DNA of 20,197 nucleotides from positions 1-20,197 of the forward strand of contig JAEOTP010000086.1 of assembly GCA_016839765.1 (NCBI GenBank), read 5' to 3'. The translations under genes and the position numbers were made by a program. This stretch comes from Promethearchaeota archaeon. GTDB taxonomy: Archaea > Asgardarchaeota > Lokiarchaeia > Sigyniarchaeales > SOKP01. Below are positions 7,186 to 14,555 of the stretch, piece after piece; position 1 is the stretch's first letter, and each line of letters starts with the position of its first letter. The notes under the pieces were generated by a model that was given only the letters and a program-made list of their open reading frames with translations, had not been told where the DNA came from and made no database searches.

Positions 7186-8076
7186 TTATTGACCCTTAAA
7201 ATTTAAGGTTATGTTTTTTAATAATTCTTTATATCTCGAACGTAGTGTTACCTCTGTAACACCAATTATTCGAGATATATCTTTTTGACTTACCTTTACA
7301 TTTCTAAGTTTTGAAACTAAATATAGAGAACCAGCACATAAACCTTTTGGATCTTTGCCAGATATTGATCTCTTATTGATATAATTCTGTAATACACGCA
7401 TTGCCTCTTTTTCAATCTCAATTCCTAAATTTAAATCAGCAGAATAACGAGGTATTAATGATACAGGATCTATGTGAGAAATTCTTAAATTTAATTCCCT
7501 TACTAAAATTTTGTAACATTTTTTTACGATATTATCGCTTATTGAAGCTTCATCCAATATTTCTTGAAGCGTTATAGGCACTCTCTCATCCTTACATGCA
7601 TAATAAGCACAAGCAGCAACCATACCATTAATAGATCTCCCCCTTAATAATTGTCTTTTAAATACCTCCTTATATAACCTGACTGCTGATTTTTTTACTC
7701 TCTCTGGAAAATTTAAATTTCCCCCAATTCTCTTCAATTCAGTAATAGCCATAAGCATATTTCGTTTTTCCCAAGATAGATGTGTATTCCATTTTGCTGC
7801 CCTCCTTAAATCTGGATTTTTAATCTTTGTTCTATCGATTACAGTACTTAAACCAATATCAGGCATTAAAATTGACATTGGTGATCCCGTTCTCTCTTTT
7901 TTATCTTTCTCGTGTTTTGAATATGCCCGAATCCCACTATGATTTATATCTAACCCCCTTTCTCCAACGACTAACCCACATTGCTTACAAACAGTTTCTC
8001 CTCTTTCTTGACTAATAATTGTAGCCCCTCCACATTCAGGGCAAGTATTAGAAACAATATCTATTTCAACAACCAT
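7186..8076 (-). CDS. tfb: Transcription initiation factor IIB (TFB)
   Basis: Zn ribbon CPECG...GETVCKQCGLV, B-reader ERTGSP, two cyclin folds (LLRGRS; GKDPKGLCAGSLY) and C-terminal HTH GVTEVTLRSRYKEL. Confidence 0.96.
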   Translation of the reverse strand: MVVEIDIVSNTCPECGGATIISQERGETVCKQCGLVVGERGLDINHSGIRAYSKHEKDKKERTGSPMSILMPDIGLSTVIDRTKIKNPDLRRAAKWNTHLSWEKRNMLMAITELKRIGGNLNFPERVKKSAVRLYKEVFKRQLLRGRSINGMVAACAYYACKDERVPITLQEILDEASISDNIVKKCYKILVRELNLRISHIDPVSLIPRYSADLNLGIEIEKEAMRVLQNYINKRSISGKDPKGLCAGSLYLVSKLRNVKVSQKDISRIIGVTEVTLRSRYKELLKNITLNFKGQ

Positions 8077-8343
8077 TTTTTTAAAACCTCAACCATATCC
8101 TTTAATTATCCATAAAAAATTTTTTGTCGCTTTTTTCATAGGACTTTGATAACAAAAATTTCTTTTTACACACACAAATTTGTTTTGTTATGATCAAATC
8201 TAGATTTTTTTATATTTAAATGTTATGGTAGTAACTGATAATTTATAAACAAAGTGTTTTAATTCCTTTTTTTACAACAAATTGAGATTTATCGTTATAA
8301 TAAATTATAGTATTATTTAGGTATTAATAAAATGCAGAAAAAA

Positions 8344-8444
8344 TAGCAAAATAACTTTTGCTAACTGTGATTTCACACACAATAGAAGATCTTAATTTTA
8401 CCACATTTTCATTTTATTCACACGAAATCTTCGATTTTGTCGAA
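8344..8444. promoter_or_regulatory. Cluster of short inverted repeats (candidate operators) in the divergent tfb / regulator intergenic region
   Basis: TAGCAAAA-taac-TTTTGCTA (8344-8363), TGTGA-tt-TCACA (8366-8377) and TTCGA-ttttg-TCGAA (8430-8444). Confidence 0.4.
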
Positions 8445-8642
8445 TTTTTATAAGGAAATTTTTTTCAGAAAATATTAAATAATTGTAGTTATACTTATGT
8501 GTTGTTAGAACTAGTTTAGTGGTAAAAATTTTTTTGTTAAAATATCCTCCATAAAGGTGAATAATAAATCACTAAGGCACCACATAAGTCTAATAACAGG
8601 GAAAAGGGTAAAGAGAAAGATTTAGATAAATCACAAAAGGAA

Positions 8643-9593
8643 ATGAATAATAAAGAACAAATAAGAAATGAAGATGATATTAGGAATTCACTTACTGATC
8701 ATGAAAAAGAAAATCTTGATTTAGAGAGTGAATTAGGAAAAAAACTAATATATTTATATGAACAACAAACGGAAAAACATGCTGTTTGGCGGAGTAATGT
8801 TACAGAAGCATTTAAAAAATGGTTAAGAGGAGAAAAAATTTATACTCGCGAAAAAGAGCGCATATCACTTTATGTATCAGAAGAAACTAAAAATGAATGG
8901 CAAGGTTTTATTAATCAAAACAAGGAGGAATTTCCCACTTTTTCCGAACTTATAAGACAGGGTGTAAAATCATTTATCGAGGATTCAGAAAAAGGAAAGA
9001 GTAATCTCTCAAAATTAAATCAACACACAATCTCTAATATCTCTCATGCGTTAAAAGAGCCCCTTACATCAATAAAAGGATATTCTCAATTTTTATTTGA
9101 AAATGAAAGCTATAAGGAAAAATTAACTGAAGACGTTCAAGATAAGCTCAAAAATATATTAGAGCAGAGCAATCTTCTTGAGAATAGAATAATTAGTTTT
9201 TTAGATAATATCAAAATTCAAAATCACGAATATGACATCTTATTAATTGAAGATGATTTAGCAACAATTCGATTAATCACAAGTTATTTTGATAGCAAAG
9301 GATATATTTGTAAGGGTGTTGTTAGCGGTTCAAAAGGTTTGGAAGAATTAGGTAGAGCACAACCAAAAGTAATTCTATTAGATATAATTCTCCCTGATTT
9401 AAGCGGATATGATATCTGTAAAACTATAAAATCAGACAAGGAATTTAGGAAAATTCCCACTTTCTTTTTAACAGCAATTTCTGGCTCAGAAGTTGAAAAG
9501 CATTTAAAAGAAACAAATGCAGATGGGTATATTTTAAAACCTTTTAACTTTTCTGATTTTGGAATAATTTTTGAGATACTAAGAGCTAGATAA
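8643..9593 (+). CDS. RHH - HisKA(DHp)-like - receiver fusion protein, paralogue 1
   Basis: RHH-like ERISLYVSEETKNEW...FPTFSELIRQGVKSFI. H-box SHALKEPLTSIKGYSQ (His135). REC domain with ILLIEDD, ILLDIILPDLSG, FLTA and YILKPF. No HATPase_c domain. Confidence 0.85.
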   Translation: MNNKEQIRNEDDIRNSLTDHEKENLDLESELGKKLIYLYEQQTEKHAVWRSNVTEAFKKWLRGEKIYTREKERISLYVSEETKNEWQGFINQNKEEFPTFSELIRQGVKSFIEDSEKGKSNLSKLNQHTISNISHALKEPLTSIKGYSQFLFENESYKEKLTEDVQDKLKNILEQSNLLENRIISFLDNIKIQNHEYDILLIEDDLATIRLITSYFDSKGYICKGVVSGSKGLEELGRAQPKVILLDIILPDLSGYDICKTIKSDKEFRKIPTFFLTAISGSEVEKHLKETNADGYILKPFNFSDFGIIFEILRAR

Positions 9594-9766
9594 AGTGCTA
9601 CTCCTATCGTCCTTACTCATAGGCGGTTATAAAATTAACATCATCCATATTTTATTTTTATAACTAAAAATGAAAAAAGATAAATTTGGTAAAAAACTAA
9701 TTTTTATCTGGTAATTAGTTTTATGTTTAAAACATTTTTTACAAAAATATCATAAATTGATACATA

Positions 9767-10729
9767 GTGATAATTTTGTCTGGAAAAGAAATTCAAGAGA
9801 ATAATCATAAAAATAAGGAAAATAATAATGTTCCCTTAATGACAGATGAAGAAATTGAAAATCTTGATATATCGAGTCAAAAAGTAAAGAAACTTATGGA
9901 AAAATATCAAAAAGAGACAGATAAATATGCAGTTTGGCGTGGTAATATAACAGAAGCATTTAAAAGATGGTTGAAAGGGGAAAAAATATATGACCGAGAT
10001 AAAGAAAGAATTTCTCTTTATGTTTCTGAAGACACTAAAGACGATTGGCAAACATTTATCAATCATAATAAAGAAACATATAATACCATCTCAAAACTTA
10101 TTCGTGATTCTGTTGATTATTTTATACAAGAAAAATCTAGTATTTTAAGTAATGGATTGAATAAACTGGATAATGAAGCTCTTGCGAATCTCTCTCATGC
10201 ATTAAAAGAACCATTAACCTCAATAAAAGGCTTTTCGCAATTATTATTAGAAAATTATCAAAGTGAATTAGATGAAAATATATTAACAACTATTCAGAAC
10301 ATCTTTGATCAGTCACTTCTTCTTGAAAACCGAATCATAAATATACTAGACAATATAAAAACCGAAACTACTCAATATGATATTTTACTTATTGAAGATG
10401 ATTTAGCAACTATAAGATTACTAACAAGTTATTTTGAAAGTAAAGGATATAGTTGTCAAGGAGTGGTAAGTGGCACTAAAGCAATCGAAGAATTAAGAAA
10501 TAATATTCCAAAATTAATCTTATTGGATATTATTCTTCCGGATTATAGTGGTTATGAAATTAGTAAAATGATTAAATCTGATGGCAAATTAAAAAGTATC
10601 CCTATATTTCTTTTAACTGCTATTCCTGGTTCTGAGGTTAAAAAACATCTGGAAGAAACTATGGCAGACGGTTTTATTCTAAAACCATTTGACTTTTCTG
10701 ATTTTGAAGTTATTTTTCAATATTTATGA
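9767..10729 (+). CDS. RHH - HisKA(DHp)-like - receiver fusion protein, paralogue 2
   Basis: Collinear with 8643..9593: ERISLYVSEDTKDDW...TISKLIRDSVDYFI, SHALKEPLTSIKGFSQ (His144), ILLIEDD, ILLDIILPDYSG, LLTA and FILKPF. The GTG start is uncertain. Confidence 0.85.
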   Translation: MIILSGKEIQENNHKNKENNNVPLMTDEEIENLDISSQKVKKLMEKYQKETDKYAVWRGNITEAFKRWLKGEKIYDRDKERISLYVSEDTKDDWQTFINHNKETYNTISKLIRDSVDYFIQEKSSILSNGLNKLDNEALANLSHALKEPLTSIKGFSQLLLENYQSELDENILTTIQNIFDQSLLLENRIINILDNIKTETTQYDILLIEDDLATIRLLTSYFESKGYSCQGVVSGTKAIEELRNNIPKLILLDIILPDYSGYEISKMIKSDGKLKSIPIFLLTAIPGSEVKKHLEETMADGFILKPFDFSDFEVIFQYL

Positions 10730-11003: not shown

Positions 11004-11921
11004 CTAAAAATTAAACAGTTTTTTCGTTTTATCAACTGTTTCAGAATCAAATTTTCTAAATAAGGAATAAGCAGTAATTGGTATAATACAACCACAATTG
11101 GAACATAAGAGTGATGAATTTCCCATGACACAAAACTTTTGCGTTCCATCAGGATAATAACTCCTTATTTCACCGGATTTAAATACACAATATGGTACAA
11201 ATTCTTTTGACATGTATACTTCTAACATTTTTTTGGAATAGAAAATAAAATCTCCATATTCACGCATTACTCTTAACATGGTTAAATTTGTTTTTTTTAA
11301 GATATTTCCTTTTAATAAAAGCGGGTCGTTAGGATAACCAGTATACATTAAGAAAACTAATCCAGAAGCACCATTCTCATAGGCAATTTTAGTAATATCT
11401 TCAATTTCATTATAATTTATTGCCATAATGGTTGTTGCAACCACCGGATTACTTTCCTGAACATTCTGTAAAACTTTGTCAAAAACCTTCACACCTCTTA
11501 TCTTATTATGAGTTTCCTTTGTACCATCTATACTTACCCAATATTTTGGTTGTTTATATCCATTAAATTGAGGTAACTTTATAACTCCATTTGATACAAC
11601 TTGAACTGAAGGGAAAACTTTAATCGCTTCTTTTATAACCTCTATTCTTAAAGTAGGTTCTCCACCAGTTAAAACAGCTACTTTTATTCCTAAATCTCTA
11701 TGATATTTAAAAAATTTAATCCATCCTTCTTTGGATAACTCTGTTCTTTTACTTTCTAATTCCATGGATGATAAGGAAAAATAACAATGCTTACATTTTA
11801 AATTACATTTCCAAGTTAAGTCATAATTCACATATAACGGAATTTTTTTTATTCTTGACTGTAAGATTGATAATCCCATAGAAATACTTCTTCTTATATT
11901 ATCTGGAGTAAAGAGTTTCAT
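11004..11921 (-). CDS. Radical SAM protein with C-terminal cysteine-rich (SPASM/twitch-like) extension; substrate unknown
   Basis: CNLKCKHC (CxxxCxxC), LTGGEPTLR, SNG, VSIDGTKETHNKIRG and C-terminal C...FCVMG...CSNCGC. Confidence 0.9.
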   Translation of the reverse strand: MKLFTPDNIRRSISMGLSILQSRIKKIPLYVNYDLTWKCNLKCKHCYFSLSSMELESKRTELSKEGWIKFFKYHRDLGIKVAVLTGGEPTLRIEVIKEAIKVFPSVQVVSNGVIKLPQFNGYKQPKYWVSIDGTKETHNKIRGVKVFDKVLQNVQESNPVVATTIMAINYNEIEDITKIAYENGASGLVFLMYTGYPNDPLLLKGNILKKTNLTMLRVMREYGDFIFYSKKMLEVYMSKEFVPYCVFKSGEIRSYYPDGTQKFCVMGNSSLLCSNCGCIIPITAYSLFRKFDSETVDKTKKLFNF

Positions 11922-12087: not shown

Positions 12088-12188
12088 CGCAGACGGAGGG
12101 ACTCGAACCCCCGAGCGCTTACGCGCACCGGCTTACTTGAATGATATACTACTCAAGGCCGGCGTCTTACCAGCTAGGCTACGTCTGC
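12088..12188 (-). tRNA. tRNA-Ser(TGA) with 18-nt canonical 37/38 intron (12134-12151)
   Basis: Minus strand: acceptor GCAGACG/CGTCTGC, G discriminator, anticodon stem CCGGC/GCCGG, loop CT-TGA-G|A, BHB helix CTTG/CAAG, long variable arm GCGC-GTAA-GCGC and T-loop TTCGAGT. Confidence 0.95.
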
Positions 12189-12365: not shown

Positions 12366-12848
12366 ATGAGTGGTGCCAAAGATTTTAGATATCTAATACC
12401 ACAGCGAATTTTTGATGAGATTACTCAAAAAGCCGCTGAAGAATATCCTTTTATTATACATTTTTGGATATTTGCTGATAGAAAAGAAAATTTTGGTATT
12501 GTAAGTAAGTTTATAGTTAATACAGATCTACGTAAGACGAAAGCTCATGTAAAGCCAAGAAGTTGGATGCGTTATAAAAAATCAAAAATTTATAACATGC
12601 GTAAATTCAAACAAGAGCTTGGTGTTGATATTGTATGGCAAGCACACGTCCATCCTACAGGATCGGAAAAGCTTCATGCTATCGATAAGAGAATTCTGAA
12701 GTATTTATCAAATGGAGTCATGATAATTGTTATACCCCCTGTTCCAGATAAGGGACAAGAGGCACATTTAGTTGGCTGGTATTACGATAAGAGATATACT
12801 AAAAAACCAATTATAGAGAAGATGGTATTTGAGATAATCTCTGAATAG
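12366..12848 (+). CDS. Divergent JAB/MPN (JAMM-like) domain protein
   Basis: N-terminal LIPQRIFDEITQKAAEEYP, then AHVHPTGSEKLHAID with the HxHP-x6-(S)xxD spacing of JAMM, followed by a hydrophobic strand (VMIIVI). Confidence 0.7.
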   Translation: MSGAKDFRYLIPQRIFDEITQKAAEEYPFIIHFWIFADRKENFGIVSKFIVNTDLRKTKAHVKPRSWMRYKKSKIYNMRKFKQELGVDIVWQAHVHPTGSEKLHAIDKRILKYLSNGVMIIVIPPVPDKGQEAHLVGWYYDKRYTKKPIIEKMVFEIISE

Positions 12849-13265: not shown

Positions 13266-13348
13266 CGCAAATGGAGGGATTCGAACCCTCGAGTCCATTG
13301 GACACCGGTTTAGCAGACCGGCGCTCTACCAAGCTAAGCGACATTTGC
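13266..13348 (-). tRNA. tRNA-Ser(GCT)
   Basis: Minus strand: GCAAATG/CATTTGC acceptor, G discriminator, CCGGT-CT-GCT-AA-ACCGG anticodon arm, variable arm GTCC-AAT-GGAC and T-arm GAGGG-TTCGAAT-CCCTC. Confidence 0.97.
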
Positions 13349-14479: not shown

Positions 14480-14555
14480 GGGCCCGTGGTCTAGTGGTTA
14501 TGACGTCGCGCTTACACCGCGAAGGTCCGGAGTTCAATCCTCCGCGGGCCCACCA
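14480..14555 (+). tRNA. tRNA-Val(TAC), CCA encoded
   Basis: GGGCCCG/CGGGCCC acceptor followed by ACCA. TCGCG-CT-TAC-AC-CGCGA anticodon arm. T-arm CGGAG-TTCAATC-CTCCG. Confidence 0.97.

Follow-up and report, generated by a model that had tools for sequence, protein, structure and literature searches.

In archaea, few response regulators bind DNA, and two-component systems are for this reason believed to work mainly by contacts between proteins (Galperin, Makarova, Wolf, and Koonin, 2018, J Bacteriol 200:e00681-17; PMC5847659). The same census listed an Arc-type ribbon-helix-helix (RHH) domain followed by a HisKA domain and a receiver (REC) for Lokiarchaeum GC14_75, and its authors left open contamination as the origin of such “bacterial-type” regulators. 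We describe here two adjacent genes, A and B, that encode proteins of this kind in a 20,197-nucleotide stretch of DNA from a Promethearchaeota archaeon of the Lokiarchaeia (GenBank assembly GCA_016839765.1, contig JAEOTP010000086.1, positions 1 to 20,197; hereafter, the window); the host genome is 3.32 Mb and 96% complete. We lean toward reading A and B not as kinases but as atypical response-regulator transcription factors dimerized by a degenerate dimerization and histidine phosphotransfer (DHp) domain, which is the simplest model that fits everything we found.

A and B share domain order, lineage, and protein family with the class listed in that census. The first-pass annotation of the window, which took the architecture to be undescribed, was mistaken in this respect, though the class is uncharacterized: the census gives it one sentence, without a function, the N-terminal module, the H-box, the tandem arrangement and transcription factor B gene (tfb) context, or phyletic limits. 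New here are the confinement of the architecture to a single family, the ancient duplicated pair, and the tfb or kinase/GTPase contexts; the H-A-L-K-E-P signature, the pattern of histidine loss, and the regulator-type receiver; and, above all, a mobile N-terminal module (N-module) that is common to the regulators and to RNA polymerase subunit A'. The A/B family would be a well-conserved, lineage-specific exception, with DNA-binding response regulators in Loki-type Asgard archaea, and an RHH domain dimerized by a kinase-derived DHp is an output design that has not been studied in any organism.

Several other described systems resemble A and B in part. Archaeal REC-(PAS)n-HisKA proteins without HATPase, such as A. 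fulgidus AF_1472, also carry a HisKA that lacks the catalytic and ATP-binding (CA) domain on a receiver protein, and this HisKA has been interpreted as a dimerization or protein-interaction module (PMC5847659). Their domain order is reversed, with REC at the N terminus, and they have neither a DNA-binding domain nor an N-module. The DHp of A aligns full length, over 70 residues, with that of Thermotoga maritima HK853 (E values of 8.5e-8 to 3e-6), and the receiver matches RR468 with a template modeling (TM) score of 0.91 and a root mean square deviation (rmsd) of 1.6 to 1.8 Å (PDB 3DGE, 2C2A). In contrast to HK853, A and B have no CA/HATPase domain, carry Ala rather than Glu at H+1 and Glu rather than Thr at H+4, and have DHp and REC on one chain behind a DNA-binding domain. 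NikR (PDB 1Q5V, 2CA9) and the RHH of PutA (2RBF) likewise place an N-terminal RHH under a C-terminal sensory or oligomerization domain (Z scores of 5.0 to 5.3 and rmsd of 0.8 to 1.3 Å against A), but in A and B a two-component DHp plus REC takes the place of the metal-binding ACT-like domain or the enzyme as the control module.

Domain organization of A and B

We compared both proteins with Pfam (gathering cut-offs) and NCBIfam profiles and with structures, using AlphaFold2 models and the search tools Foldseek and VIA-align. A and B are 63% identical across 298 residues, and the tandem N-module, RHH-like, DHp, and REC arrangement that the first-pass annotation had read from the window was verified together with its quoted motifs, IEDD, LLDIILP, LTAI, and ILKPF all being in place. 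The features of the pair are as follows.

8643 to 9593, plus strand: gene A, 316 amino acids (aa), with N-module, RHH, DHp, and REC; the tfb-proximal copy
8724 to 8846, plus strand: N-module of A, residues 28 to 68, core YEQQTEKHAVWRSNVTEAFKKWLRGEKIY; helix, small hairpin, short helix
8847 to 8996, plus strand: RHH of A, residues 69 to 118; strand ERISLYV, helices 80 to 92 and 100 to 117
9012 to 9212, plus strand: DHp (HisKA) hairpin of A, residues 124 to 190, with the His135 codon at 9045 to 9047 and no CA/HATPase after it
9231 to 9590, plus strand: REC of A, residues 197 to 316, with E202, D203, D204, D247, T277, Y296, and K299
9381 to 9383, plus strand: codon of the phospho-acceptor D247 of A; the switch residue is Y296
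9767 to 10729, plus strand: gene B, 320 aa from the GTG at 9767, with the same four modules as A
9872 to 9994, plus strand: N-module of B, followed by its RHH at 9995 to 10144
10196 to 10198, plus strand: codon of the H-box His144 of B, in its DHp module
from about 10379, plus strand: REC of B, with the codon of the phospho-acceptor D254 at 10526 to 10528

An alternative start of gene B, the internal ATG at 9839, would give a protein of 296 aa. The N-module core lies at residues 39 to 67 of A and 47 to 75 of B, the RHH strand ERISLYV, identical in both, at 72 to 78 and 80 to 86, and the H-box segment SHALKEPLTSIKG at 134 to 146 and 143 to 155. Pfam HisKA (PF00512) covers residues 129 to 188 of A (E value of 1.3e-9) and 137 to 194 of B with 38.4 and 35.6 bits (cut-off 26.9), and Response_reg (PF00072) covers residues 199 to 305 of A (E value of 2.6e-18) and 206 to 313 of B with 66.6 and 66.2 bits (cut-off 30.2). 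The receivers are intact, as had been claimed, with the EDD, phospho-Asp, Thr, and Lys residues located in both proteins.

Sensor and hybrid histidine kinases have a HATPase_c domain after the DHp, and A and B have none: Pfam HATPase_c gave no match in either protein at E ≤ 1, and a Pfam scan of the window proteins found no kinase within the window, in agreement with the initial reading. The first 125 residues matched no Pfam or NCBIfam family above cut-off, and the N-terminal module, proposed as new from the sequence, had no match in Pfam, NCBIfam, or the ESM Atlas.

Predicted folds

An AlphaFold2 model of A made from a 38-sequence alignment (mean predicted local distance difference test [pLDDT] score of 86) shows residues 30 to 61 as a helix, a small hairpin, and a short helix, followed by an extended ERISLYV and helices at 80 to 92 and 100 to 117. 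The DHp helices (127 to 158 and 163 to 188) lead through a linker of about 10 residues into a (β/α)5 receiver. A separate model of residues 25 to 121 had a pLDDT of 90.6, and the N-module scored about 86 to 93 in these models. RHH domains have a β-α-α fold of some 45 to 50 residues and bind DNA as dimers through a two-stranded antiparallel ribbon; the RHH strand is unpaired in the monomer models.

With the model of residues 25 to 121, Foldseek returned only ParD2, ParD1, and HicB as low-rmsd matches in the PDB (TM scores, normalized to the target, of 0.73 to 0.76 to ParD2 and ParD1). VIA-align covered 48,161 chains, and among the best 50 matches listed, nearly all of the first 46 were RHH DNA-binding domains (rmsd of 0.8 to 2.2 Å), with Z scores of 3.8 to 5.8 that are modest in absolute terms, the domain being so small. 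The list held ParD2 (Z score of 5.8), TacA1 (5.4), NikR (5.3), and PutA (5.0; rmsd of 0.9 Å), as well as MazE, CopA, Arc, Omega, AmrZ, ORF56, and SvtR; these matches span model residues 45 to 97, that is, residues 69 to 121 of the protein. Because the list is so uniform, we consider the RHH assignment of the modeled N-terminal domain of A secure at the level of fold, and both searches bear out the RHH-like segment first noticed in the sequence. The NCBIfam model for CdrS, a haloarchaeal RHH regulator, matched weakly and below its cut-off (E value of 0.027), and one JGI record labels a homolog “Arc/MetJ-type RHH regulator.”

The DHp is also genuine. His135 of A aligns on the phospho-acceptor His260 of HK853, and helix 2 (ILEQSNLLENRI) aligns on IIDQSNHLENLL, in line with the H-box His that had been assigned at the outset. 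The receiver of A has TM scores of about 0.9 to RR468, PhoB, and DivK. A Foldseek search with the whole model returned only REC matches, and REC matches also dominated an alignment-profile search of the PDB, in which the N terminus was uninformative.

These folds could also be taken as the remains of a hybrid histidine kinase, given the HisKA-REC order of a hybrid kinase minus its CA domain and partial matches to such kinases, or as an antitoxin-like RHH protein without a signaling role, given that the best RHH structural matches are the antitoxins ParD, TacA, and MazE. We rejected a truncated or pseudogenized kinase or an antitoxin as most improbable: only about 10 residues separate DHp helix 2 from REC strand β1 in the model, with no CA remnant between them, no toxin partner lies in the neighborhood, and there are hundreds of intact homologs (65 to 97% identity) with purifying conservation over six genera.

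Distribution and duplication of the family

Residues 1 to 196 of A were used as the query (E ≤ 1e-10) against 151 genomes sampled across the phylum. Matches were found in 23 of the 25 genomes of the GTDB family to which the window belongs (six genera, g1 to g6); 26 other Asgard families, sampled with 126 genomes, gave none. The architecture was thus confined to one GTDB family in this sample, and the search across Asgard genomes that the first-pass annotation had suggested did not show a wider spread. Because they are conserved in 23 genomes, we regard A/B-type regulators as native to this lineage. An exhaustive search of 1.84 billion representatives gave 59 clusters at E ≤ 1e-10. NCBI labels that place homologs with 65 to 97% identity in the Thor-, Heimdall-, Hod-, or Hermodarchaeota or in “Nanopelagicaceae” conflict with the GTDB-based scan, and we rejected them as unreliable labels of metagenome-assembled genomes. 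In a protein of 4,917 aa (P0176), five stretches match residues 91 to 132 of A (RHH helix 2 and the linker), a similarity that may be compositional.

Every genome with the family has two adjacent copies, and some have extra solitary paralogs. In a maximum likelihood tree, the tfb-proximal A copies of five genera form one clade (support 96/90), apart from the distal B copies, which form clades of their own. Since the A copies fall in one clade across five genera, the duplication predates those genera, and A and B are, judging by the sequences, an old tandem duplication. The two copies of genus g4 group together (100/99), outside the A and B clades, and a third paralog from the genome of the window (C, on contig C6) belongs to a supported clade (100/98) that has lost the H-box His.

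Such a history could mean that A and B are an obligate heterodimer, in which the DHp hairpins would cross-pair asymmetrically and the two receivers could integrate two kinase inputs; this arrangement is compatible with either a response-regulator or a phosphorelay mechanism. The tandem pair in all 23 genomes and six genera, the separation of the A and B clades across five genera, and the placement of the genes on one strand, 173 to 245 bp apart, are consistent with it. So is the identical RHH strand, with which a mixed dimer would still recognize a single kind of operator. The g4 copies, however, group with each other and not with the A and B clades, those of one g4 genome (G040) are separated by a kinase gene on the opposite strand, and solitary C-type paralogs exist. 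We therefore treat obligate heterodimerization as possible but doubtful.

H-box and receiver conservation

In a HisKA domain, the acidic residue at H+1 serves autophosphorylation and the Thr or Asn at H+4 serves phosphatase activity. The canonical H-box is H-[ED]-x-x-[TN], from which A and B depart by reading H-A-L-K-E-P. The H-box is the most conserved stretch of the protein. Among 120 close homologs it reads SHALKEP in 109 and SHDLKEP in 11, and in all 24 A/B-clade orthologs (12 genomes) the His is retained, H+1 is A, T, or D, and L-K-E-P is fixed. The canonical H+1 acid is usually absent. At H+4, Glu replaces the Thr or Asn throughout the A/B-clade and g4 members examined, and most divergent members share this change. 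The H-A-L-K-E-P motif described at first is present in A and B, but its Ala is not constant, being Asp in 11 of the 120 homologs and Thr or Asp in some orthologs.

Beyond these clades, the His is not always kept. In the 38-sequence alignment, whose members are 29 to 84% identical to A, about 10 members have F, Y, L, R, E, or K in its place or lack it, whereas REC residues D204, D247, and K299 are invariant. Paralog C reads SFILKEPLT with an intact REC, and copy 1 of g4 reads SYVLKEALT in two of three species and SHVLKEALT in the third. The earlier expectation that the His is conserved among homologs consequently stands for the 24 orthologs and 120 close homologs but fails for C, for g4 copy 1 in two species, and for about 10 of the 38 aligned members. 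The retention of His in some clades and its loss in others is a natural experiment on the fate of a DHp after the loss of its ATPase.

Relay-intermediate receivers are marked by the FATGUY motif (F-A-T-G-x-Y) at β4 and regulator-type receivers by an aromatic switch residue, according to the criteria of Bruderlin et al. 2023 (PMC9981736). The REC domains of A and B are of the regulator type, with LTA at β4 as part of F[FL]LTA, an aromatic residue at K-3 (Y296 in A, F in B), and no FATGUY; in A, T277 and the aromatic K-3 form a Y-T coupling pair. These features recur in 28 of 30 scorable locus-derived members; at K-3, L or I replaces the aromatic residue in two B copies.

The first-pass annotation had proposed a self-contained phosphorelay. 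In such a relay, a single-domain REC or a kinase would phosphorylate His135, the phosphate would pass to Asp247 in the same dimer or in the paralog, and the RHH would switch, as in a fusion of Spo0B with Spo0A. Comparable DHp hairpins that carry a His but are not active as kinases occur in the histidine phosphotransferases Spo0B of Bacillus and ChpT of Caulobacter, which would be functional counterparts of A and B under this relay. Both keep a pseudo-CA α/β domain, and neither is fused to a REC or DNA-binding domain. The position of His135 on the phospho-acceptor of HK853, its strict conservation in the A/B clade amid strongly constrained surroundings, and the loss of the H+1 acid and H+4 Thr/Asn, which fits a DHp that only transfers phosphate, all agree with such a relay. 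In g4 the pair has PAS kinases and two single-domain REC genes as neighbors, and in the model the end of DHp helix 2 is level with the His, such that the tethered REC could reach it. Phospho-acceptor and phosphotransfer roles for HATPase-less HisKA domains are allowed by Galperin et al. (PMC5847659). The relay is nonetheless weakened by regulator-type rather than relay-intermediate receivers, by the lack of a Spo0B/ChpT-like pseudo-CA domain, and by the replacement or loss of His in C, in g4 copy 1 of two species (the genus with adjacent kinases), and in other members with REC intact, so that, in contrast to Spo0B and ChpT, the His is not essential family-wide and is dispensable in several clades. 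We judge an internal His-Asp relay unlikely, and a weaker account than a response regulator dimerized by its DHp.

A second alternative is that the CA-less DHp docks other receivers or kinase DHps as a phosphatase, sink, or competitor, with DNA binding secondary. The extreme conservation of the H-box surface would suit such a modulator of kinase pathways, and phosphatase activity of HATPase-less HisKA domains was raised by Galperin et al. (PMC5847659), but H+4 is Glu and not Thr or Asn in A/B-clade, g4, and most divergent members, and the RHH and an allosteric-type REC are conserved together with the DHp. This makes the modulator improbable in our view.

Genomic context and a proposed mechanism

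Gene A is transcribed divergently from a tfb paralog.

7186 to 8076, minus strand: tfb paralog with a TFIIB zinc ribbon and two cyclin repeats (Pfam TFIIB, 2.7e-39; Zn_Ribbon_TF, 1e-9)
8077 to 8642, no strand: divergent spacer of 566 bp with TATA-like blocks and rare words

With seven TFIIB-repeat (tfb) loci on seven contigs, the genome holds a family of alternative basal factors, to which the tfb beside A belongs. Window proteins were compared with 14 retrieved loci by tblastn, and the order tfb (divergent), A, B, orf160 (a small downstream gene) is kept in five of the six genera (g1, g2, g3, g5, and g6), which upholds the tfb linkage proposed from the window alone.

The pair of the sixth genus, g4, is not adjacent to tfb. 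In genome G040 (locus L004, 1 to 16000), the genes upstream of copy 1 encode a REC-PAS-HisKA kinase, truncated where the locus ends, a REC, a PAS kinase of 874 aa, and a REC of 122 aa. Copy 1 is followed by a PAS kinase gene (668 aa) on the opposite strand, by copy 2, and then by genes for two Gtr1/RagA-type GTPases and for a metallophosphoesterase. Both regulators stand among three PAS histidine kinases and two single REC genes, and the locus as a whole is a compact cluster of two-component and Rag-like GTPase genes. Elsewhere in the genome of the window, about eight kinase-like HATPase_c open reading frames (ORFs) lie on other contigs, and in a published table the Lokiarchaeum GC14_75 protein KKK46010 (HisKA; REC) is numbered beside KKK46009, a 132-kDa PAS kinase.

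We postulate that the DHp forms an obligate four-helix-bundle dimer that would bring two RHH half-domains together into a DNA-reading β-ribbon. Trans-acting cytoplasmic PAS histidine kinases would phosphorylate REC at Asp247 (A) or Asp254 (B), and phosphorylation would alter the packing of REC against DHp, a change that could travel along the helical bundle to the RHH geometry or to higher-order assembly on DNA. The near-invariant H-box surface (SHALKEPLTSIKGYSQ) may be mainly a surface for REC docking and transmission, and because whole sister clades have lost it, the His is probably a relic of a kinase ancestor that is not generally required. Likely targets would be in the shared 566-bp spacer, that is, the transcription of the pair itself and of one tfb paralog, so that a signal from a kinase would tune how much of an alternative basal factor is available. 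The adjacency of tfb offers a direct test of whether kinase signals reprogram TFB usage.

We prefer this DHp-dimerized response regulator because of the domains and folds and the invariant regulator-type REC; because C, copy 1 of two g4 species, and about 10 of 38 aligned members have lost the His and kept REC intact; because kinases exist in trans, with the g4 and Lokiarchaeum regulators beside PAS kinases; and because of the divergent tfb linkage in five genera, the RHH strand shared by A and B, and rare words that are enriched in the spacer and follow gene A in g4. It also accords with the view of Galperin et al. that HATPase-less HisKA domains in archaeal response regulators are dimerization modules (PMC5847659).

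In a 7-mer count over 11 orthologous spacers, ACACACA/CACACAA were 8 to 10 times and TTGTTAT was 6.5 times as frequent as in the locus background. ACACACAA occurs in the spacer at 8170 to 8177 and 8375 to 8382, with another copy inside gene A at 9023; the genome (3.32 Mb) has 30 occurrences, of which 6 are outside long ORFs, 2 of them in the spacer. These words are also present upstream of copy 1 in g4, a site without a neighboring tfb. A multi-locus alignment also showed cross-genus TATA-like blocks at about 8211 to 8222 and 8468 to 8482 and a conserved TTTTTACACACAA block near tfb. With one mismatch allowed, ACACACAA was not enriched across the window (15 found, 9.6 expected), and local enrichment is limited to the exact word. 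We regard the ACACACAA and TTGTTAT words as candidate operators and a lead only.

Several observations weigh against the mechanism proposed above. No Pfam RHH family matches A or B at E ≤ 1, and dimerization, DNA binding, and phosphorylation are each read from folds, motifs, and context. The tfb-A-B order belongs to a larger syntenic block of closely related genomes, so that common descent and not function may account for it. Statistically, the operator words are a weak lead, and the other ACACACAA sites in the genome revealed no wider regulon. All A/B orthologs and close homologs examined retain the His, which may be chemically used in this clade.

A mobile N-module shared with RNA polymerase

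The N-module is about 35 residues long, with the consensus core Y-E-x-E-T-G-K-x-A-[IV]-W-[RK]-G-x-[IV]-T-x-x-F-x-x-W. The search of representatives also returned proteins that match A at residues 14 to 75 only, and the module stands at the N terminus, at the C terminus, or inside a variety of proteins (order from N to C terminus, from Pfam and sequence reading).

P0197: Arf, N-module, REC
P0206 and P0214: Ras, N-module
P0229: Ras, gelsolin, N-module
P0183: N-module, Ras
P0173: REC, N-module

When the six-frame ORFs of the genome of the window were screened with a profile built from 123 instances, the carriers recovered were A, B, C, and four more.

ABC ATPase: N-module at the N terminus, 47 bits
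RNA polymerase subunit A': N-module at the extreme C terminus, 43 bits, E value of 1.5e-11; gene at contig C57:84275-87208 (locus L018), N-module tail at L018:2791-2925
ORF of 156 aa: N-module carrier
Multi-pass membrane protein: N-module on the cytoplasmic tail

The A' gene encodes Rpb1 domains 1 to 5, a Lys/Glu linker, and ...YEEETGKNAVWRGKTTKGYLDWKK before the stop, directly followed by rpoA'' (AAQSIGEPGTQMT). The loci of the other carriers in this genome include L016:432-1607 (minus strand), L020, and L019.

A profile restricted to the N-module (alignment A3) was run on the 151-genome sample and matched 25 of 25 genomes of the GTDB family of the window, 2 of 2 genomes of its sister family, and 0 of 124 genomes from 25 other families; the module was thus confined to a single order in this sample. 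Genomes with the module have 3 to 14 copies. The sister-family matches lie inside A' frames of 1,187 and 1,217 aa, and the A' tail aligns full length within the GTDB family of the window only. The most widely conserved carrier is A', where the module sits on a Lys/Glu-rich tether at the A'/A'' split.

The N-module is a separate mobile mini-domain that probably serves as a docking tag for a shared partner or nucleic acid. In a speculative and rather unlikely extension of this reading, the tag would be an order-specific one for which the regulators, Ras/Arf GTPases, gelsolin and leucine-rich repeat proteins, the ABC ATPase, and the membrane protein all have a common partner; they would vie for this partner or gather on it, and the polymerase tail itself, a hub protein, or DNA might fill the role. 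The A/B pair would then contact the transcription machinery through the tag. If true, two-component and small-GTPase signaling would have a direct link to RNA polymerase in an archaeon closely related to eukaryotes, and A and B touching the polymerase through the tag would be analogous to bacterial activators on the tethered C-terminal domain of the α subunit. Should it be a docking tag, the module could also show the wiring of signaling, cytoskeletal, and transcription proteins in the archaeal lineage closest to eukaryotes.

The nearest parallel is the “Zn domain” of lokiarchaeal gelsolins, a C-terminal docking module (Akil et al., 2022, Commun Biol 5:890; PMC9433394). It is likewise a small, Loki-restricted terminal module on unrelated multidomain proteins, and P0206 and P0229 also end in a CxxC...HxC ribbon that corresponds to it. 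The N-module differs in having no Cys/His ligands and in occurring at the N terminus, at the C terminus, or internally, and it is not mentioned in that paper. In the literature searched, we found no description of the N-module, the Lokiarchaeia A' tail, or the GTPase fusions. We see a minority chance that the module reveals something categorically new.

In genome G008, of a sister genus, a protein of 443 aa (L017:4709-6037, minus strand) has two N-module/RHH-like units followed by leucine-rich repeats, and its gene directly adjoins the tfb that flanks the A/B pair.

Other features of the window

The approximately 150 nucleotides upstream of A (8488 to 8625) contain the blocks GGTAAAAA and AAGGTGAA...TAAAT...CACTAAGGC, which are conserved among genomes of the same genus. 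Rfam matched only the three tRNAs in the window and nothing in this leader. Downstream of B are the following features.

11004 to 11921: radical-SAM gene, between B and orf160
12088 to 12188, 13266 to 13348, and 14480 to 14552: tRNAs, flanking the radical-SAM gene
12366 to 12848: orf160, 160 aa, the downstream neighbor of B conserved in five genera

The radical-SAM gene adjoins the tRNA cluster and is missing from all 13 orthologous loci examined, which marks it as a recent insertion. The orf160 product has no Pfam match, and its HVHPTGSEKLHAID motif resembles a JAB/MPN metal site.

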